From: a virus
Lineage: Duplodnaviria > Heunggongvirae > Uroviricota > Caudoviricetes
DNA: 28,177 nucleotides
Strand: one strand, 5' to 3'
Virus record (IMG/VR): IMGVR_UViG_2563366895_000004
Shown here: one piece after another, positions 9,020-26,538 of the stretch
Position numbering within the stretch: the stretch's first letter is position 1
How the letters are laid out: each line of letters starts with the position of its first letter
Position numbers and translations under genes: made by a program
Notes under the pieces: model-generated
Seen by the model: the letters and a program-made list of their open reading frames with translations, nothing else
What the model was told of the DNA's origin: nothing
Databases searched by the model: none

Positions 9020-9226
9020 CTTCATTTTCACTTTTTTAAATCCAACGACAGACGGCTGGCATTTAAGTATTGTGAAATATTATCAAATGTAATCATCATT
9101 GATTTACAAAAGATACATTTTGCCCCGAAAGGATTCATGTCAGAAACATCAAAAGATGATGTTCTATACTGGGAACCATGACAACACGGGCATCTAAAGT
9201 GAATATGGTTTGTAATATTGTCTACC

Positions 9227-9439
9227 TCAAAGCGCCACTACATGAACAGCGGCAGGACCTTTAGGTCCGTTCTCAATACCAAATTCAACTTCCTGATTCT
9301 CAGTTAATGTTTTGAAATCGTTGCTCTGAATTGCTGAGAAATGGACAAACACATCTTTGCTGCCATCTTTCGGCGTGATGAAACCAAAACCTTTTTCAGG
9401 GTTAAACCATTTCACTAAACCAGTCATTTTGTTAGACAT
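9227..9439 (-). CDS. cspI: Cold shock protein, CspA family
   Basis: 70 aa, '[38 protein letters not shown]...' with RNP1/RNP2-type motifs. Long AT-rich upstream region (9440..9800) typical of csp 5'UTRs. Symbol by Qin context. Confidence 0.8.
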
Positions 9440-9802
9440 AATTATTACCTTTTGAAGAAATTAGCCCTTGGGCAGAATGGTCCGAAAAAAAATATCAGAG
9501 AGAAAAACCAACAAGGAAATCTCAAGAGGTACAAATAATAAAATTATAACAATGACTGCTTCAGATAAATTTGTAACAAACCAGAACACCATTAACGCAT
9601 GATTAACCACCCATAGCAAGGATTACTTTTGTAAAGAAAAACACAGCAATGAAAGAATAGCTTTATTTATTAATAATAACGTGTCATTCTGATTAAGACC
9701 TTTTATCTTACCCTTAAGATTTCAGGAATTTTGGCTCATGGAAGAGTCCTTTTTATTTAAATTTTACATTCCGCGATGTAAATGTTCCGATTTAATATTA
9801 CC

Positions 9803-10826
<1,024 letters not shown>

Positions 10827-10830
<4 letters not shown>

Positions 10831-11138
10831 AGATATTTATGATGAGGACGCTCGTGCTTATTGGCAGGATTTTCAATCTTAAAGGAGTACTGATGCTGCA
10901 GATAAGACTCAACTTTTTCTGACAATTTTTCTGCTACTTCCAGGAAGACTTGCCGGACGCTCATTCTGGCTGCTGCCTCATAAAACTCCAGCGCAGCTCC
11001 TTCAACACGGTCCATGGCGACATCCAGGCCAAAAATTTCACCGTCAAAGCGTTCTTTGTCCTGTAAGGCTACAGTTACCGTAACTTTATTCTCAAAATTA
11101 CGGACTCCTTTCACAACCAGTTCATAGTCTTGAGTCAT
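10827..11138 (-). CDS. ydfR: Qin-type YdfR protein of unknown function, located between holin and endolysin
   Basis: 103-aa ORF overlapping the endolysin start by 4 nt. Length and position match recalled K-12 ydfR. Confidence 0.6.
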
Positions 11139-11142
11139 TGGA

Positions 11143-11358
11143 TTACTCTCCTCTCGCAGTCTTACGCCTGTCTTCTTTAATCTTGAAATAAAGATTTGTC
11201 AGATACGTCAGCATGCCAAATACCAGACTACCCAATACACCTATTGCCGCCCACTGTGAGGGCGTGACTTTATCGAGCAACTGTAAAAACCAGTAGCCAG
11301 CACTGCCTGCAGAGGTGCTGTAGGCGATGCCCGTTGTTAACTTATCCATGGATTTCAT
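11143..11358 (-). CDS. essQ: Class II holin (S21-like pinholin) with dual-start motif
   Basis: 71 aa '[26 protein letters not shown]...[30 protein letters not shown]'; two TM segments; Met1/Met4 dual start. Near-identical in pattern to recalled phage 21 S. Confidence 0.85.
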
Positions 11359-11548
11359 AGCCTCACCTCCGCAGATAACGGATGGTGTACACGGTTTGGT
11401 TCGAAGAAGGAAAGAAGTTACATTAGCGTAAGGCCCGAACATCTATTCAAAAAGAAAAACGCCAGCAATTATTCTGGCGTAGCTAAAAATATCGTATAAT
11501 CTTACACTTCAAAAAATAACTTTATAAAATGCCATCACATCATATCTT

Positions 11549-12271
11549 CTAAGAAAATCTTGATAAATATTGGTGCGGAGGCACACCAAAATATCCTCTA
11601 AAAACACTTACAAAATATGATGCATTGTCATACCCGCATATTCCCGCCACCTTGCCGACAGTATGGTTACTGTAGATCAATAATCTTTGCGCCATCATCA
11701 TTCGTTCTTCAAGAATTAATTTACTAAACGATAATCCTTCGTCTTTTAATTTTCTTTTTAACAAACTCTCGCTCATATATAATCTTGAAGATATATCACA
11801 AAGTCTCCATGACGCTGAGATATCCGAGTGAATAATAGCCTTAACTTTACAACCTAAGCTATTAAGACTTCCGAACAAAAAACTTTGCACTATTTTCTCT
11901 GAAGATAAGACAGCAAGACATGCAAGTGATATTTGATTTCTAACTACATCCACGGTTTTGCTATCACAATTCAAGCATGCAACCAAGTTCTTTAACAATG
12001 AAAAATCTTCACATTCTACTATCAAGTATGACGTATAAAACCTTCTTACAGAAAAAGGTGAGAGTGTGTAGTTTTTAAAGAAATCATTAACTGTTTTCTC
12101 CTCAACATCTACGATCATTAGATGATCTGTATTTGACGAAAAAAGATCTTTTAAATTGTATTCAATGAGGACAGCATTTCCTTTTTTAAACAAAATATCT
12201 TCTTTACCAATTCGGACACCAAACGAGTTCAACACCAAAATGATAGAACATATGTATGACATATTATCCAC
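11549..12271 (-). CDS. AraC/XylS-family transcriptional regulator (AppY/GadX/Rns-like), AT-rich moron
   Basis: 240 aa; C-terminal double HTH 'SESLLKRKLKDEGLSFSKLILEERMMMAQRLL...GYDNASYFVSVFRGYFGVPPHQY'. Low-GC codon usage; about 400-bp AT-rich upstream region. Confidence 0.75.
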   Translation of the reverse strand: MDNMSYICSIILVLNSFGVRIGKEDILFKKGNAVLIEYNLKDLFSSNTDHLMIVDVEEKTVNDFFKNYTLSPFSVRRFYTSYLIVECEDFSLLKNLVACLNCDSKTVDVVRNQISLACLAVLSSEKIVQSFLFGSLNSLGCKVKAIIHSDISASWRLCDISSRLYMSESLLKRKLKDEGLSFSKLILEERMMMAQRLLIYSNHTVGKVAGICGYDNASYFVSVFRGYFGVPPHQYLSRFS

Positions 12272-12668
12272 CTGATATCATTGGGGTTACACCAGGTAAG
12301 TATAGGTGGAAAATCAATATTCGCCAGTTCAACAATAAGGAAAATCTCATTGCATCACAACTATAAAACCATGTGTTTAACTCACAAAAAACAAATCATT
12401 AAACTAATCTGTTATATTATAATAGCTGCGTGCAATAATAATATTATATGCTCTTTATATTCACTTGAAATATCTTCATATAAAAACAGATTGAATAAAA
12501 TCTTTTGGGGCTGGTATGTTTACCAACATTAAATTGCATCTCAATGTTTTCTTTAGCGTGAACAGGATTTTTATAAAAACTGACACTATGAGCATCATAG
12601 CGTAGTTTTTACGATTGTAAATATCCTGCATACAGGAACTCATCACTTTCAGATGATATCGCATACAG

Positions 12669-13628
12669 TTAATTCACCATCAGTCTTAGAGCCAGTTCTT
12701 CCGGATAGGGATCGAAGTAATTCTGTGTAAGCAAGTAATCATTAGGATACTCACCCAGATAATGCTTCAGCAGAGTCAACGGCGCAAGAAGAGGCAATGT
12801 GCCAAAGCGATAGTTAAGTATAACCTCGCTCAACTCTTTACGCTGGCGTGTACTTAAGTAATTACTAAAATACCCCTGTATATGCATCAGCACATTCGTG
12901 TGATTTTTACGTGATGCTGGTTTTCTGAGAATCGCCATCAGATTATCACGATACACCTCAAAGTATGATTCAAGGTCCGCCCACTCGTGTATTGCAGCCA
13001 CAAATGGTCCCATATCTTTATAGCCTGCCTGGCTATGCGCCAACAACTGAAGCTTATAACGACTATGAAAAGCTAATAACTCTCTTCTTGATAATTTCTC
13101 CTTGTAAAGGTGATTGAGCTCATGCAAAGCAAAAACTCTTTCAATAAAATTCTCACGAAGCACTGGATCATGTAATCGCCCATCCTCTTCAACCGGTAGC
13201 CAGGAAAACTTTTCCATCAAAGTGCTCGTAAATAGTCCCACTCCATCTTTACGACCTCGATTACCATTTTCATCATAGACACGCACGCGCTCCATGCCAC
13301 AGCTGGGAGATTTAGCACAAACCACAAACCCCGATACATCCTTTAATTTGTCCATATAAGAACGACTAAACTCTGTCATTCTCTCTGTCACATCCTCATT
13401 CTGGTCATGGCTGAAACACATCCGTATATTTCCTTGCTTCGAGCGCACAAGTCGTAGAGCAGGACGCGGAACTGGCAGCCCTATAGCCATTTCCGGACAT
13501 ACTGGTCTGAATGTTACCCATTCCACTAATTTGTCCATTAAAAAGTCATCTCTTTTGTGACCACCATCAAAACGAACAGCAGAACCGCCCAAACAACCGC
13601 TGATCCCAATCACAGGTTTTTTTATCAT
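12669..13628 (-). CDS. DUF523 (TudS-like) / DUF1722 (YbgA-like) fusion protein
   Basis: 319 aa; N-terminal 'GISGCLGGSAVRFDGGHK' and further Cys residues typical of the DUF523 Fe-S family; C-terminal half resembles YbgA. Family assignment from memory. Confidence 0.55.
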   Translation of the reverse strand: MIKKPVIGISGCLGGSAVRFDGGHKRDDFLMDKLVEWVTFRPVCPEMAIGLPVPRPALRLVRSKQGNIRMCFSHDQNEDVTERMTEFSRSYMDKLKDVSGFVVCAKSPSCGMERVRVYDENGNRGRKDGVGLFTSTLMEKFSWLPVEEDGRLHDPVLRENFIERVFALHELNHLYKEKLSRRELLAFHSRYKLQLLAHSQAGYKDMGPFVAAIHEWADLESYFEVYRDNLMAILRKPASRKNHTNVLMHIQGYFSNYLSTRQRKELSEVILNYRFGTLPLLAPLTLLKHYLGEYPNDYLLTQNYFDPYPEELALRLMVN

Positions 13629-13820
13629 TTCCTCCCCCTTGACTAATTCATTAACACATAAACTTTGTAGTGCACGGACTAAATTGCCTTTCTGGCTTCA
13701 TCACTGACAATTTTTCTGTTATTGACTATTCCTAATATAGTAGGAAAGTTCTTTAAGTGATCGGTCGTACTCATCTATCTTTCATACTTACTCTCAACTA
13801 TCAAAAGTACAGGATTTATT

Positions 13821-14345
13821 ATGAAGTTATGGCCTGTGTTGACTGGCATTGCACTCTCTTTCACTCTTATAGCATGTAAGGCCCCGACACAACCTAAAGG
13901 TGTGCAGCCGATTACAAATTTTGACGCCAACCGCTACCTCGGAAAATGGTATGAAATAGCTCGCCTCGAGAACTGGTTCGAACGTGGTCTGGAACAGGTC
14001 AGCGCTACTTATGAAAAACGGAACGACGGAGGGATTCGCGTACTTAACCGTGGATACGATCCAACGAAAAACAAATGGAGCGAGAGCGAAGGTAAAGCAT
14101 ACTTTACTGGAGATACTAAAACTGCAGCGTTGAAAGTTTCGTTTTTTGGCCCCTTCTATGGTGGCTATAATGTAATCAAACTGGATGATGAGTATAAGTA
14201 TGCTCTTGTCAGTGGTCCGAACAGAGAATACCTATGGATTCTGGCAAGGACCCAAACTATTCCAGATAATGTAAAAGCAGACTATGTGCGTACCGCTCAA
14301 AAGTTGGGATTCAATGTCAATGAACTATTATGGGTTAAACAATAA
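13821..14345 (+). CDS. Bacterial lipocalin (Blc-like) outer-membrane lipoprotein
   Basis: 174 aa; signal peptide with lipobox 'LIAC'; lipocalin motif 'NFDANRYLGKWYEIARLENWFERG'; 'ALKVSFFGPFYGGYNVI' closely resembles recalled E. coli Blc. RBS 'aggat' upstream. Confidence 0.85.
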   Translation: MKLWPVLTGIALSFTLIACKAPTQPKGVQPITNFDANRYLGKWYEIARLENWFERGLEQVSATYEKRNDGGIRVLNRGYDPTKNKWSESEGKAYFTGDTKTAALKVSFFGPFYGGYNVIKLDDEYKYALVSGPNREYLWILARTQTIPDNVKADYVRTAQKLGFNVNELLWVKQ

Positions 14346-14373: not shown

Positions 14374-14400
14374 AAAAAAACCAGCCTTTGGGGAGGCTGG
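14374..14400 (-). terminator. Candidate tR'-like intrinsic terminator of the short late leader transcript
   Basis: Stem 'ccagcct'/'aggctgg' (14381..14400) followed on the minus strand by a U-run. Lies about 50 nt downstream of the candidate promoter. Confidence 0.5.
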
Positions 14401-14452
14401 CTAAATCAGGAAATAAGCTGTTATATGATAATAACTACGTTGCGATTCCAAC

Positions 14453-14488: not shown

Positions 14489-14500
14489 CTTTTCCTTTAA

Positions 14501-14878
14501 TTATTTCGAACAATCAGCATCCATCTCCAATCGGAGATCCAACACCATCAGCATGCCCTCCACTACGCCCTCAGCTTTCTGGAGCATCCTGCCAACCCAA
14601 CAATCAGATCGCCCATGCTTACGTGCAAGCGCCATAAAAGTCATGCCGCCGACATAATAGTCCACCAATAAATCATGTAAATCGCTGTTGTTTTTTTTCA
14701 GGCGAGCCATACATTCACAAATGATCATCGCGTCATCGTCACAGCATTGCGGACGAGATCTTACTTTTGAAGGAATTAATCCCTTAAAACCGGCGGCAAT
14801 GGACGACCAGGTCACATCTTCATGATTATTAGCCGCCCATGCCCCCCAACGCTCAAGAACCATCTGAATATCACGCAT
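14501..14878 (-). CDS. Late antitermination protein Q (short QuuD/phage-82-type)
   Basis: '[35 protein letters not shown]...[20 protein letters not shown]...' closely matches recalled QuuD of DLP12. ORF track start 14893; the internal Met at 14878 is the likely start. Confidence 0.8.
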
Positions 14879-14895
14879 CAACTTACTCCACAAAA

Positions 14896-16759: not shown

Positions 16760-16915
16760 TTACTCCTCAGGTTCGTAAGCTGTGAAGACAGCGACCTCCG
16801 TCTGGCCGGTTCGGATTCGTACCTCGCAGAGGTCTTTCCTCGTTACCAGTGCCGTCACTATGACGGTTAAACAGATGACGATCAGGGCGATTAACATCGC
16901 CTTTTGCTGCTTCAT
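16760..16915 (-). CDS. hokD: Hok-family type I toxin (HokD/RelF)
   Basis: 51 aa 'MKQQKAMLIALIVICLTVIVTALVTRKDLCEVRIRTGQTEVAVFTAYEPEE' matches recalled RelF/HokD. The ORF track extends it to 16972 (in-frame leader). Confidence 0.85.
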   Translation of the reverse strand: MKQQKAMLIALIVICLTVIVTALVTRKDLCEVRIRTGQTEVAVFTAYEPEE

Positions 16916-17565
16916 AGCCTGCTTCTCCTTGCCTTCCGGCACGTAAGAGGCTAACCTACATGTGTCTAGCATGAAATTGGCCTCAGATTAATGTTAAGCG
17001 TCTTGCAGGACGCGTAATGTTAACTGGGGCTTTTCTCTATCTGCCTTTGGTGTTCATGCCCGAGGCAGATAGCCTCAAGCACCCGCAGCCATTCTACTTA
17101 ACTACCTTTACCTCGCCAATATGAAATCAGTCAGAAAGGCGATCCATAAGAACAATAGCAAGACAATAAATCGCCATTACAGCCGTAATAGCCAGCGCAC
17201 ATTTGAGAACCAGCACCACAACCTCCTGTATTGGACGTACACCAGTCCTGATAAATATGAGGCTGTCTCGTCCGTGATTCAATACAACTATTGGGTATGG
17301 TTTCTCTGATTTTTCTGTGGAAATGGAGCTCAACCACTAGTCACCACCAGCACTTCTTTTAATACGCAAAGTCCGACGCAAGCCAACAGGTTCAATTTCA
17401 TATATATGAATTTTAAGCAGTATTCACCTACACGATTATTAGCAATTTCCTGAATATATGATGGAGTGTCTTGACGATTTTAGACCAGAAACGCCCTCCA
17501 CGTATTTCTGAGCGTACGCAACATATGTTATGGCAAATGCGAGCATATGGTAGAGTCAAATAAGT

Positions 17566-23369: not shown

Positions 23370-23427
23370 TTTCTGGTGACGTTTGGCGGTATCAGTTTTA
23401 CTCCGTGACTGCTCTGCCGCCGTTTTT
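23370..23427 (+). ncRNA. dicF: DicF small regulatory RNA (ftsZ-targeting) with intrinsic terminator
   Basis: 'tttctggtgacgtttggcggtatcagttttactccgtgactgctctgccgcc' followed by 'gttttt' matches recalled DicF (about 53 nt). Ends are approximate. Confidence 0.8.
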
Positions 23428-24066: not shown

Positions 24067-26538
24067 ATGAGTAAAGTCTTTATTTGCGCCGCTATTCCTG
24101 ACGAACTGGCAACAAGGGAAGAAGGCGCTGTGGCTGTAGCCACAGTCATTGAAGCTGGCGACGAACGCCGTGCTCGAGCAAAATTTCACTGGCAGTTCCT
24201 AGAACATTATCCGGCTGCTCAGGACTGCGCTTATAAATTTATTGTCTGCGAGGATAAACCTGGCATACCCCGCCCTGCCCTCGATTCATGGGATGCTGAA
24301 TATATGCAGGAAAACCGCTGGGATGAGGAGTCTGCTTCTTTTGTCCCGGTTGAGACTGAATCCGATCCGATGAACGTCACTTTTGACAAGCTGGCCCCTG
24401 AAGTACAGAACGCTGTCATGGTTAAGTTCGACACATGTGAAAACATCACCGTTGATATGGTTATTAGCGCACAGGAATTGTTGCAGGAAGACATGGCAAC
24501 ATTCGACGGACATATCGTTGAAGCGTTGATGAAAATGCCAGAAGTTAACGCCATGTATCCGGAGCTTAAGTTGCACGCCATTGGGTGGGTTAAGCATAAA
24601 TGTATTCCTGGTGCTAAATGGCCCGAAATTCAGGCAGAGATGCGCATCTGGAAAAAACGTCGCGAAGGTGAACGCAAGGAAACCGGAAAATACACGTCTG
24701 TTGTTGATCTCGCCCGCGCCAGAGCCAATCAACAGTACACTGAAAATTCAACAGGAAAAATCAGCCCGGTCATTGCTGCCATTCATCGCGAATACAAGCA
24801 GACATGGAAAACACTGGATGACGAACTGGCCTACGCTCTCTGGCCTGGTGATGTGGATGCCGGAAACATTGACGGCAGCATCCATCGCTGGGCAAAAAAA
24901 GAAGTTATCGACAACGACCGCGAAGACTGGAAGCGTATCTCGGCATCAATGCGCAAACAGCCTGATGCCCTTCGCTACGACCGCCAGACTATTTTTGGCC
25001 TTGTCCGTGAGCGTCCGATCGACATTCACAAAGATCCCATAGCACTGAACAAATATATCTGCGAATACCTGACGGCAAAGGGCGTGTTTGAGAATGAAGA
25101 AACAGACCTGGGCACTGTTGATGTTCTCCAGTCATCAGAAACACAAACTGATGCAGTGGAAACTGAGGTATCTGATATCCCAAAAAATGAAACCGCGCCG
25201 GAAGCTGAACCATCTGTAGAGCGTGAGGGGCCGTTCTATTTCCTCTTCGCAGATAAGGACGGAGAAAAATACGGTCGCGCAAACAAACTTTCTGGTCTGG
25301 ATAAGGCACTGGCTGCTGGCGCCACTGAAATCACAAAAGAAGAATATTTTGCCCGAAAAAATGGCTCATACACGGGCTTACCGCAAAATGTAGATACCGC
25401 TGAAGATTCAGAACAACCAGAGCCGATAAAAGTTACCGCTGACGAAGTAAACAAAATTATGCAGGCAGCCAATATCAGCCAGCCTGACGCCGATAAGTTG
25501 CTTGCTGCATCACGTGGTGAATTTGTTGAAGGGATTAGTGACCCGAATGATCCGAAATGGGTTAAGGGGATCCAGACCCGCGATTCTGTGAACCAGAACC
25601 AGCATGAATCGGAACGGAACTACCAAAAAGCGGAACAAAACAGCACAAATGCGTTACAAAACGAGCCAGAAACGAAACAGCCTGAACCAGTGGCGCAACA
25701 GGAAGTGGAAAAAGTCTGCACCGCCTGCGGTCAGACCGGCGGCGGCAACTGCCCTGATTGTGGCGCGGTGATGGGCGACGCAACATACCAAGAAACATTC
25801 GATGAAGAGTATCAGGTTGAAGTTCAGGAAGATGATCCGGAGGAAATGGAAGGCGCTGAACATCCACACAAGGAGAACACTGGCGGCAATCAGCATCACA
25901 ATAGCGATAATGAAACTGGCGAGACGGCAGATCACTCAATTAAGGTGAACGGTCATCACGAAATCACATCCACCAGCAGGACGTGTGACCATCTAATGAT
26001 CGACCTTGAAACCATGGGAAAAAATCCTGATGCCCCGATCATCTCAATAGGTGCAATATTTTTCGATCCGCAAACCGGAGATATGGGACCGGAATTTAGT
26101 AAGACTATCGATCTGGAAACTGCTGGCGGAGTCATTGATCGGGACACCATTAAATGGTGGCTTAAGCAATCACGCGAAGCGCAATCTGCCATTATGACCG
26201 ATGAAATCCCGTTAGATGATGCACTGTTACAATTACGGGAATTTATCGACGAAAACTCCGGTGAATTTTTTGTTCAGGTTTGGGGAAATGGAGCCAACTT
26301 CGACAACACGATTTTGCGCCGTTCATACGAACGGCAGGGGATCCCCTGCCCGTGGCGTTACTACAACGATCGCGATGTACGCACAATCGTTGAGCTGGGG
26401 AAAGCCATAGACTTCGATGCCAGAACGGCTATTCCATTCGAAGGTGAGCGCCATAATGCACTTGATGACGCCCGTTACCAGGCAAAATACGTTTCAGTTA
26501 TCTGGCAAAAACTGATCCCGAGTCAGGCTGATTCTTAA
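24067..26538 (+). CDS. ydfE: Exonuclease-VIII-like protein with C-terminal DEDDh 3'-5' exonuclease domain (apparently intact ydfE)
   Basis: 823 aa; C-terminal motifs 'LMIDLETMG', '[12 protein letters not shown]', '[13 protein letters not shown]' (Exo I/II/III); central C-x2-C...C-x2-C '[16 protein letters not shown]'. Position between dicB/ydfD and xis/int. Confidence 0.75.

Follow-up and report, generated by a model that had tools for sequence, protein, structure and literature searches.

The gene described here, carried on the minus strand of a 28,177-nucleotide stretch of caudoviricete DNA (IMG/VR record IMGVR_UViG_2563366895_000004; the window), probably encodes RudS, an 'eraser' of tRNA 4-thiouridine (s4U8) that is carried as a prophage moron. 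As cargo, prophage rudS is of a kind already known: the enzyme class, its chemistry and a phage example with the same cassette have all been published. The literature is to be corrected on one point, as E. coli, said to be without RudS by Jamontas et al. (2024, Nucleic Acids Res 52:10543; PMC11417400) and by a 2026 review, holds an intact-looking, selectively maintained rudS of lambdoid-prophage type in 21% of its complete genomes (1136 of 5426). Many natural isolates may thus depart from K-12 in their growth delay under near-UV, their s4U content, and their behaviour in labelling or cross-linking that uses s4U, as a consequence of the cargo of their prophages.

The gene is an intact open reading frame with an ATG start, located exactly where the earlier note had placed it, and it corresponds to the RefSeq CDS WP_000592549.1 ('YbgA family protein') in a record with 100% identical gene DNA. 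The gene and its parts are:

12669..13628, minus strand: rudS coding sequence, a TudS-DUF1722 fusion of 319 aa (open reading frame and Pfam PF04463/PF08349).
13182..13610, minus strand: TudS-type catalytic domain, residues 7-149 (Pfam, PDB sequence match 6z92, AF2 fold, alignment).
12702..13055, minus strand: DUF1722 (YbgA-like) all-helical domain, residues 192-309 (Pfam, NCBIfam NF007549, AF2 helices).
13631..13640, minus strand: Shine-Dalgarno sequence AAGGGGGAGG, ending 2 nt before the rudS ATG (read from the sequence).

The two domains that the earlier note had proposed, a TudS-type Fe-S desulfidase and a YbgA/DUF1722 domain, were both recovered by profile searches at full length and far above the curated Pfam cut-offs. 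PF04463 ('2-thiour_desulf', formerly DUF523) covered residues 7-149 with profile positions 1-141 of 141 (137 bits, E 5.8e-40; cut-off 34.7 bits), and PF08349 (DUF1722) covered residues 192-309 with profile positions 1-117 of 117 (136 bits, E 9.4e-40; cut-off 22.5 bits). An N-terminal PF04463 domain joined to a C-terminal PF08349 domain in a single 319-aa polypeptide is the architecture of RudS, and PHROG 3275 covers the product end to end (319/319). The C-terminal half matched the model of E. coli YbgA (NF007549; 4.7e-56, profile positions 10-164 of 169), but the whole protein reached only 189 bits against this model, under its equivalog cut-off of 237, and the RefSeq label therefore understates the product. 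The strong Shine-Dalgarno sequence was mostly kept in four alleles. Nothing beyond the open frame speaks for the reading frames of 40-54 aa that overlap rudS on both strands, or for one of 62 aa between rudS and araC.

The residues required for catalysis are in place. The 'GCLGG...DGGHK' motif lies at residues 11-25, and C12, C44, and C110, the predicted [4Fe-4S] ligands, align with Cys10, Cys43, and Cys104 of TudS in a PDB sequence search and share their numbering with RudS_vir and RudS_ST (PMC11417400 Table 1). Alignment of the window protein with 46 relatives (47 sequences, 34-56% identity) showed these cysteines, on which the earlier proposal depended, to be invariant, together with R19, P45, E46, R55, S107, P108, and S109; the predicted catalytic set E46, R55, S107, and S109 is thus complete. 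Mutation of E51, S111, S113, R60, or any of the three Cys abolished activity of RudS_KT (PMC11417400), and E46, S107, S109, and R55 would be the respective counterparts of the first four, a correspondence read off the motifs CPE, PRP, and SPSCG and an unchanging offset in numbering. An AF2 model of RudS, with a moderate pLDDT of 70 (below 50 in loop 13-32) and used for fold assignment only, matched five PDB entries at E<=1e-3, each of which is a TudS structure (E 3.5e-5 to 3.8e-4, probability 1.00, target-normalised TM 0.66-0.72).

The DUF1722 half is helical throughout in the AF2 model and had no match among solved structures in PDB sequence and fold searches; by homology, it is predicted to be a tRNA-binding module, the role assigned to this domain in RudS (PMC11417400). 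Within its 'PASRKNHTNV' motif, S239-R240 are invariant across 25 enterobacterial and phage sequences, and among the diverse relatives in the 47-sequence alignment the majority consensus is A-T-R, neither column being invariant or nearly so. Matched by numbering offset and motif rather than by alignment to RudS_KT, these residues are the likely counterparts of RudS_KT S243 and R244, which have been implicated in anticodon-arm binding and of which mutants were weakened in tRNA desulfidation (PMC11417400).

The closest experimental reference is the orthologous RudS_vir (Escherichia phage 1H12 gp66, YP_009909557.1), also of 319 aa and identical to the window protein at 293 of 319 positions (92%, gapless), with none of the 26 substitutions at cluster or catalytic residues. 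RudS has been characterised as a [4Fe-4S] TudS domain combined with a tRNA-binding DUF1722 domain that converts s4U to U, on the basis of experiments on RudS_vir and five other RudS proteins that addressed both s4U desulfidation of tRNA and the [4Fe-4S] cluster; synthesised RudS_vir expressed in E. coli led to less s4U in tRNA (PMC11417400). The earlier note had left the substrate broad (thionucleobase, thionucleotide, or tRNA), and these experiments favour tRNA. For the window protein itself, we infer the enzyme activity, the timing of expression, and the physiological benefit. The three cysteines would hold a [4Fe-4S] cluster of which the free iron takes the thione sulfur of s4U, and E46, oriented by R55, S107, and S109, would activate water for the conversion of s4U to U and sulfide. 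Docking of the anticodon arm by DUF1722 would favour whole tRNA over free thionucleotides. In carrier cells, tRNA s4U would be lowered, so that near-UV light would form fewer s4U8-C13 cross-links, uncharged tRNA and ppGpp would be reduced, and the growth delay under UVA would be shorter; about one in five E. coli strains would gain a desulfidase activity that K-12 is without. This light-stress rationale is borrowed, because MerR/LitR regulators, photolyase, and light-responsive partners are missing beside the window rudS. Moreover, a gut commensal has little UVA exposure, which counts against a UVA benefit.

It is unlikely that the protein is mainly a TudS-like small-molecule desulfidase, detoxifying or salvaging 4-thio-UMP, 4-thiouridine, and 4-thiouracil that would come from tRNA breakdown, for example through phage-induced host RNA turnover, and not editing intact tRNA. 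The N-terminal TudS fold is genuine and contains every catalytic residue, and stand-alone TudS accepts free thionucleotides and bases, prefers 4-thio-UMP more than 2000-fold over 4-thiouracil, and is inactive on tRNA (PMC10611767). In addition, RudS_vir desulfidated tRNA less than other RudS proteins although it was well expressed, and its lag on 4-thiouracil was the shortest among the six RudS proteins tested (PMC11417400); RudS_vir may therefore lean toward small thionucleotides as substrates. Nevertheless, tRNA s4U was lowered in vivo by RudS_vir, no RudS equalled TudS in supporting growth on 4-thiouracil, and with RudS_vir cells grew on 4-thiouracil only after a delay and failed to grow on 2-thiouracil (PMC11417400). 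A stand-alone TudS consists of one domain of about 150 aa and rescues a uracil auxotroph on both 2- and 4-thiouracil, which does not describe the two-domain, 319-aa window protein or the growth behaviour of RudS_vir. Selection also argues for a function of the intact fusion on tRNA, as DUF1722 is more tightly constrained than the TudS domain (omega 0.10 vs 0.21) and the likely counterparts of the anticodon-arm residues are invariant among the 25 enterobacterial and phage sequences.

The genomic setting of rudS is that of a cargo gene between the late regulator and the lysis genes of a lambdoid prophage:

14501..14893, minus strand: antiterminator Q, PF06530 type (Pfam 8e-51, PHROG 79; RefSeq start 14878).
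14500..14529, minus strand: weak, putative PR'-like late promoter TGGAGA-18-AATAAT, overlapping the Q stop codon.
14379..14402, minus strand: tR'-like hairpin and T-run terminator, about 100-125 nt past Q (terminator scan).
13821..14345, plus strand: blc-like outer-membrane lipocalin lipoprotein, antisense to the Q-to-lysis direction (Pfam Lipocalin_2 7.5e-43).
12583..12603, minus strand: hairpin and T-run, the likely terminator of the rudS unit, 66-86 nt past the rudS stop (terminator scan).
11549..12271, minus strand: AraC-family regulator, YdeO/GadX-like, GC 0.33 (Pfam HTH_18 and HTH_AraC, PHROG 1450).
11459..11480, minus strand: terminator hairpin between the AraC-like gene and holin (terminator scan; dG -11.3 kcal/mol, z -3.2).
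9803..11442, minus strand: lysis cassette of holin essQ, ydfR, lysozyme rrrQ, and Rz-like rzpQ (PHROG holin; RefSeq of the identical region).

The module order is thus Q, tR'-like terminator, blc (antisense), rudS, and AraC-like regulator, followed by holin and lysozyme, with the lysis cassette as the downstream border of the moron slot. The suggestion that rudS is phage cargo held up, since the gene lies between Q and holin, has a GC content of 0.43 (0.33 for the araC-like gene) compared to 0.50-0.54 in neighbouring phage genes (lysozyme, ydfU), and is bracketed by hairpin terminators. In K-12-like Qin prophages the same slot holds cspB/ynfU instead. Judged by its Q/tR'-to-holin slot, its atypical GC, and a terminator of its own, rudS is a lambdoid moron, a class of cargo gene that is dispensable for the phage cycle. 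The stx genes of Stx phages occupy the same Q-to-holin slot, and tRNA genes are common downstream of Q in these phages; tRNA genes are absent from the whole window, and Rfam at gathering thresholds returned nothing in the cassette. The lipocalin exceeded the cut-off of the Blc NCBIfam model (308.6 bits vs 267), and blc is a common lambda moron (PMC6969025). The top NCBIfam match of the AraC-like regulator, the downstream cassette member, was YdeO, far under cut-off. Two open reading frames of an APEC prophage, orf6 and orf10 (PMC7724020), were rejected as cassette members, as the orf10 deletion primer did not match anywhere in the window, even when 3 mismatches were allowed.

Both terminators that bracket rudS are structurally pronounced, the tR'-like hairpin having a dG of -14.9 kcal/mol (z -4.2, with 0 of 200 shuffles folding equally well) and being invariant in four alleles, and the rudS-proximal hairpin a dG of -14.1 kcal/mol (z -4.5). 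The PR'-like candidate has 9 of 12 consensus matches, and its -10 element is AATAAT or GATAAT across the four alleles. A sigma-70 promoter scan of the region found promoter-like matches at chance frequency, no commoner than in shuffles, and none of them in the 192-bp blc-rudS spacer; expression of rudS in the lysogen is for these reasons only putative. A promoter picked by eye (TTGCTG-17-TAACAT at 14488-14460) was discarded, as its -10 hexamer is not kept in 1H12. Given the Q-to-holin slot and the conserved Q/tR'/blc/rudS/araC module, two transcription routes are possible: Q-antiterminated late read-through, or a separate unit with its own promoter and the rudS-proximal terminator.

The module is widespread and conserved. 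Among 80 IMG/VR prophage loci, 68 were arranged as Q+ Blc- RudS+ AraC+ holin+ lysozyme+, and the others mostly are without at least one flanking gene and are often shorter, four having holin and lysozyme and no AraC; the AraC-like gene is found in 72 of the 80. The module is also encountered in the viable phages 1H12 and IdasGreatGrand, in several prophage backbones, and at different integration sites. At least 80% of rudS is present in 1064 of the 1136 carrier genomes, and IS-disrupted or truncated copies occur in some (H75, H93, H94, H95). The gene is under purifying selection, with a dN/dS of 0.11-0.14 (about 0.13) between the two main rudS alleles at a dS of about 0.30. The window prophage is defective and Qin-like: TerL is fused in frame with the tail fibre, and the head genes and all other tail genes have been lost. 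The role of rudS in lytic growth of this prophage is therefore moot, and the earlier suggestion that the enzyme acts during phage growth is inapplicable to the window copy. The companion suggestion of a late operon is compatible with the gene order from which it was drawn, but is weakened by the terminator directly downstream of rudS.

It appears quite unlikely that the phage is the main beneficiary, with rudS as an auxiliary gene of late expression that changes the tRNA pool of the host during lytic growth; it could keep translation going after UV or sunlight induction, damp ppGpp, destabilise particular host tRNAs, or blunt a tRNA-directed defence. As rudS runs in the direction of Q and the lysis genes and comes after the tR'-like terminator, Q-modified RNA polymerase should read into it, and the module is kept in plaque-forming lambdoid phages. 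Moreover, loss of s4U reduces the levels of tRNA-Tyr and tRNA-Ser (PMC11417400; PMC13602947). However, a late gene would act once the inducing UV has already cross-linked tRNA, no literature was found that ties s4U to known defence systems, and a PADLOC search at E<=1e-3 returned no family for RudS, Blc, or the AraC-like protein. In addition, rudS has its own terminator and is intact and DNA-identical in a prophage that is unable to make virions, which points to a host benefit. A terminator of its own is typical of morons that are expressed from the prophage state. That prophage RudS serves as a phage auxiliary gene through Q read-through after sunlight or UV, sparing late translation or evading a putative tRNA-sensing defence, is improbable; with s4U stripped, late translation of the phage would escape stalling at near-UV cross-links as well as ppGpp signalling, and prophage content would set strain-to-strain tRNA s4U levels and UVA physiology in E. 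coli. As 1H12 and IdasGreatGrand are viable carriers, whether an eraser benefits the lysogen or the phage is a tractable question. Finally, although the surrounding prophage is defective and broken rudS copies exist, it is highly improbable that rudS is an inert passenger, hitch-hiking or decaying in a cryptic prophage and currently functionless, given its intact reading frame in 1064 of the 1136 carriers, its low dN/dS, its fully preserved catalytic residues, and its strong Shine-Dalgarno sequence.

The preferred reading, a tRNA s4U eraser carried as a moron, can be placed among known systems as follows. TudS (PDB 6Z92, 6Z93, 6Z96, 6ZW9) shares the fold, the three cluster Cys, and the Glu/Ser/Ser/Arg set with the N-terminal 150 residues of RudS, but is a single-domain protein of about 150-166 aa with about 26% identity to the window RudS, which adds the 170-aa DUF1722 domain. 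Conversely, E. coli K-12 YbgA (b0707), the model of which fits the C-terminal half of RudS, is a stand-alone DUF1722 protein without the catalytic domain, and its over-expression left tRNA s4U unchanged (PMC11417400). The chromosomal RudS proteins (RudS_ST, Salmonella STM1389/ORF319; RudS_KT, P. putida PP_0741) have the same TudS-DUF1722 architecture as the window protein, and those of enterobacteria are also 319 aa long and 69-76% identical to it, with invariant catalytic residues. Their surroundings are different, as chromosomal copies neighbour MerR/LitR regulators, photolyase, and carotenoid or light-responsive operons (PMC11417400), which the window copy is without; the latter has blc and an AraC-type regulator as its neighbours in a prophage late region. 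For example, Citrobacter rudS is the last gene of an operon encoding SDR, amine-oxidase, DUF1365, CFA-synthase, DUF2878, and DUF3833 proteins, none of which accompanies the window copy. In Citrobacter, the 175-aa protein encoded upstream of the DUF3833 and rudS genes has a sub-threshold chalcone-isomerase-like match only, and its comparison with phage Blc (best E 1.8) led to rejection of the idea that the blc-rudS pair is a relic of a chromosomal photo-oxidative-stress operon. The nearest known system is phage 1H12, a viable phage, in contrast to the defective Qin-like prophage of the window; its AraC-like regulator beside rudS is only 75.7% identical to that of the window, and it shares the window cassette and its position, that is, Q, blc (antisense), rudS, AraC-like gene, and holin.

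The rudS gene (window 12669-13628, minus strand) is an uninterrupted open reading frame of 319 codons with an ATG start, and 2 nt separate the ATG from the strong Shine-Dalgarno sequence that precedes it, AAGGGGGAGG. The earlier note had read this stretch as a DUF523/DUF1722 fusion with a Cys-rich N-terminal domain, and its proposal of two domains was borne out by Pfam-A, in which both were matched end to end, each far above its cut-off:

RudS residues 7-149: PF04463, '2-thiour_desulf' (formerly DUF523), profile positions 1-141 of 141, E 5.8e-40, 137 bits (cut-off 34.7)
RudS residues 192-309: PF08349, DUF1722, profile positions 1-117 of 117, E 9.4e-40, 136 bits (cut-off 22.5)

The C-terminal half also matched the NCBIfam model of E. 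coli YbgA; the score did not reach the equivalog cut-off, which is to be expected of a fusion. All 319 of 319 residues were covered by phrog_3275, a full-length PHROGs family of unknown function. Fusion of a TudS domain to DUF1722 is the architecture that defines RudS, the bacterial tRNA 4-thiouridine (s4U) desulfidase (Jamontas et al., Nucleic Acids Res 2024, PMC11417400). The viral representative in Table 1 of that study, RudS_vir, is gp66 of Escherichia phage 1H12 (NC_049947), with Cys12, Cys44, and Cys110 as cluster cysteines. The window protein is identical to gp66 at 293 of 319 positions (92%) with zero gaps, and none of the 26 substitutions affects a cluster or catalytic residue. A phage-encoded case from the same cassette has thus been published, as have the family and the chemistry of the enzyme.

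A phmmer search of PDB sequences with RudS retrieved only TudS (6Z92 and related entries), and C12, C44, and C110 of the query, as well as the CPE and SPSCG motifs, aligned to TudS, the cysteines to its C10, C43, and C104. In a 1.84-billion-protein library, 1170 clusters matched RudS at E<=1e-30; when 46 representatives of clusters (34-56% identity) were aligned with the window protein, the sole invariant columns were C12, G15, V18, R19, C44, P45, E46, G50, P54, R55, S107, P108, S109, C110, G131, and P145. The three cluster cysteines are thus conserved in all 47 sequences, and the invariant set also takes in Glu, Arg, Ser, and Ser residues that, by motif and offset, may be equated with those whose mutation abolished the activity of RudS_KT, the Pseudomonas putida enzyme PP_0741 (PMC11417400). 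An AlphaFold2 model built from 24 sequences (moderate confidence, pLDDT 70, pTM 0.60) has an alpha/beta N-terminal and an all-helical C-terminal domain. Foldseek matched it to five PDB entries at E<=1e-3, all TudS (probability 1.00, target-normalised TM 0.66-0.72), with zero PDB matches for the DUF1722 half.

Judged by homology, the mechanism is most likely the published one: C12, C44, and C110 would hold a [4Fe-4S] cluster, the free iron of which would bind the sulfur of the thione; water would be activated by E46, itself kept in position by R55, S107, and S109; and DUF1722 would contribute binding of the anticodon arm, with conversion of tRNA s4U8 to U as the outcome. Expression of all six RudS orthologues tested, including RudS_vir, lowered s4U in E. 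coli tRNA. RudS_vir had less tRNA activity than expected from its expression level; with it, the lag on 4-thiouracil was the shortest, and cells did not grow on 2-thiouracil (PMC11417400). A reading of RudS as a TudS-like salvage enzyme is not favoured. Carriers would be expected to contain less tRNA s4U, and should therefore show less s4U8-C13 photocross-linking and a shorter UVA growth delay, as seen with RudS_KT expressed in E. coli (PMC11417400).

A Qin-like lambdoid prophage makes up the window; its insertion lies between a truncated ydfJ and the rspB side of the chromosome. The local order on the minus strand is:

ydfU (DUF968), before Q
14893-14501, minus strand: antiterminator Q (PF06530, E 8e-51)
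14402-14379, minus strand: hairpin with T-run in the place of lambda tR' (dG -14.9 kcal/mol, z -4.2)
13821-14345, plus strand, opposite to rudS: blc-like lipocalin lipoprotein
12669-13628, minus strand: rudS
12603-12583, minus strand: hairpin after rudS (dG -14.1 kcal/mol, z -4.5)
12271-11549, minus strand: AraC-family regulator
11480-11459, minus strand: hairpin after the AraC-like gene (dG -11.3 kcal/mol, z -3.2)
holin, ydfR, lysozyme, and Rz, last in order

Lambdoid phages classically carry their morons in this slot, which in K-12-like Qin prophages is occupied by ynfU and cspB. Composition agrees with a foreign origin of the cassette: rudS has a GC of 0.43, blc of 0.44, and the AraC-like gene of 0.33, versus 0.50 for lysozyme and 0.54 for ydfU. 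The closest models to the AraC-family regulator are YdeO, HilD, and GadX, all far below cut-offs; it is 75.7% identical between window and 1H12, versus 92% for the adjacent RudS, a difference that points to faster evolution of the regulator or to recombination with a break near 12551. Elsewhere in the window, Rfam gathering thresholds yielded typical Qin cargo, namely the sok antitoxin RNA that partners hokD (16910-17084, minus strand), the DicF sRNA (23371-23422, plus strand), and a cspA-type thermoregulator 5' UTR (9200-9585, minus strand) upstream of the cspI position annotated in related prophages. The early region also encodes a 591-aa AIPR-family protein (PF10592; 17594-19369, minus strand) that matched the PADLOC AbiU and MzaE models and is likely an abortive-infection or defence gene; strain PBS4 has a different, hypothetical 1023-bp gene there. 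An 823-aa 'exonuclease' (24067-26538, plus strand) combines a C-terminal Rv2179c-like 3'-5' exoribonuclease domain (PF16473) with approximately 640 N-terminal residues lacking any Pfam match, and is a pseudogene with an internal stop in strain LR-48.

Orientation and position would place rudS in the late operon. A moron unit may be transcribed in the prophage state and may also be reached by read-through of Q-modified polymerase; the terminators after rudS and after the AraC-like gene fit this moron pattern. A promoter-like site (TGGAGA-18-AATAAT, 14529-14500, minus strand) overlaps the stop codon of Q; in four alleles the -10 hexamer of this site is AATAAT or GATAAT. Promoter-like matches in the region were not in excess (14, versus 11.4 +/- 3.1 expected from shuffles), and the same scan found none in the 192-bp blc-rudS spacer. 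Two spacers, including this one, differ by only ~8-9% between window and 1H12. The flanking genes diverge more than this at synonymous sites, a weak hint that the spacers are under regulatory constraint.

A 1193-aa open reading frame (3197-6778, minus strand) is an in-frame terminase/tail-fibre chimera with the junction ...VVQM|EEVARN...: its residues 1-103 reproduce without change the start of a related prophage's large terminase, and its residues 101-1193 share 98% identity with side-tail-fibre residues 108-1200. The fusion thus joins terminase residues 1-103 to tail-fibre residues of approximately 111-1200. Of the 247-position GpA ATPase profile, Pfam detected only positions 2-71, along with a C-terminal S74 peptidase domain. 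Portal, capsid, and all tail genes other than the side tail fibre are absent, removed by the deletion that made the chimera; the prophage is therefore defective, and burst-size experiments are impossible with this element. It nevertheless retains a rudS sequence identical to copies in intact prophages, which argues for a benefit to the host. Reading rudS as an anti-defence factor, or as a late auxiliary gene that serves the phage, is not favoured; the anti-defence role raised in the earlier note found no support, as RudS, Blc, and the AraC-like protein matched no PADLOC family at E<=1e-3.

The arrangement Q+ Blc- RudS+ AraC+ holin+ lysozyme+ was complete in 68 of 80 prophage loci from IMG/VR with a RudS of at least 97% identity; most of the remaining loci, often shorter, lacked at least one flanking gene, and four had holin and lysozyme without the AraC-like gene. 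The module occurs at differing chromosomal positions, on backbones with differing nin and lysis genes, and in lambdoid phages that form plaques (1H12 and its relatives, IdasGreatGrand); the isolators of the 1H12-type phages listed blc among the morons, present in over half of the lambda-like phages that they obtained (Mathieu et al., PMC6969025). In complete E. coli genomes, rudS was found in 1136 of 5426 (at least 80% of the gene in 1064), carried on lambdoid prophages at several integration sites, with up to three copies per genome. The two main rudS alleles have a dN/dS of 0.11-0.14 at dS ~0.30 (Nei-Gojobori), and by half 0.10 for DUF1722 and 0.21 for TudS. The low dN/dS and wide spread of the module indicate that rudS is maintained by selection and not in drift, and an inert passenger is not favoured. 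The statement that E. coli lacks RudS (PMC11417400; 2026 review, PMC13602947) is true of K-12 and false for about one fifth of sequenced strains, in which the copies are prophage-borne. E. coli Nico21(DE3) (NZ_CP053600.1, 1589699-1589845) carries a 147-bp fragment, annotated '2-thiouracil desulfurase family protein' and 100% identical to the rudS 5' end, evidently a remnant of the cassette.

Three Salmonella enterica contigs (L009-L011) encode a RudS that shares 73% identity with that of the window (5001-5960; 3704-4663 in L010), at a locus distinct from SPI-2 ORF319. The surroundings look like a prophage remnant, with a DUF1367 gene in all three and an integrase fragment in L011, and rudS directly adjoins a PF01171-family gene taken to be ttcA (tRNA 2-thiocytidine synthetase). 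Contigs L006-L008 (1-5960) encode a RudS named by NCBI as Citrobacter braakii YbgA family protein, with chromosomal rudS last in an operon of SDR, amine oxidase, DUF1365, cyclopropane-fatty-acid-synthase-like, DUF2878, 175-aa unknown, and DUF3833 genes; the 175-aa protein was ruled out as a relative of phage Blc, to which it is unrelated. This Citrobacter operon context is not present around the window rudS. The MerR/LitR and photolyase partners of chromosomal RudS (PMC11417400) are also missing there; unlike chromosomal RudS, the window rudS has Blc and an AraC-type regulator as its neighbours.
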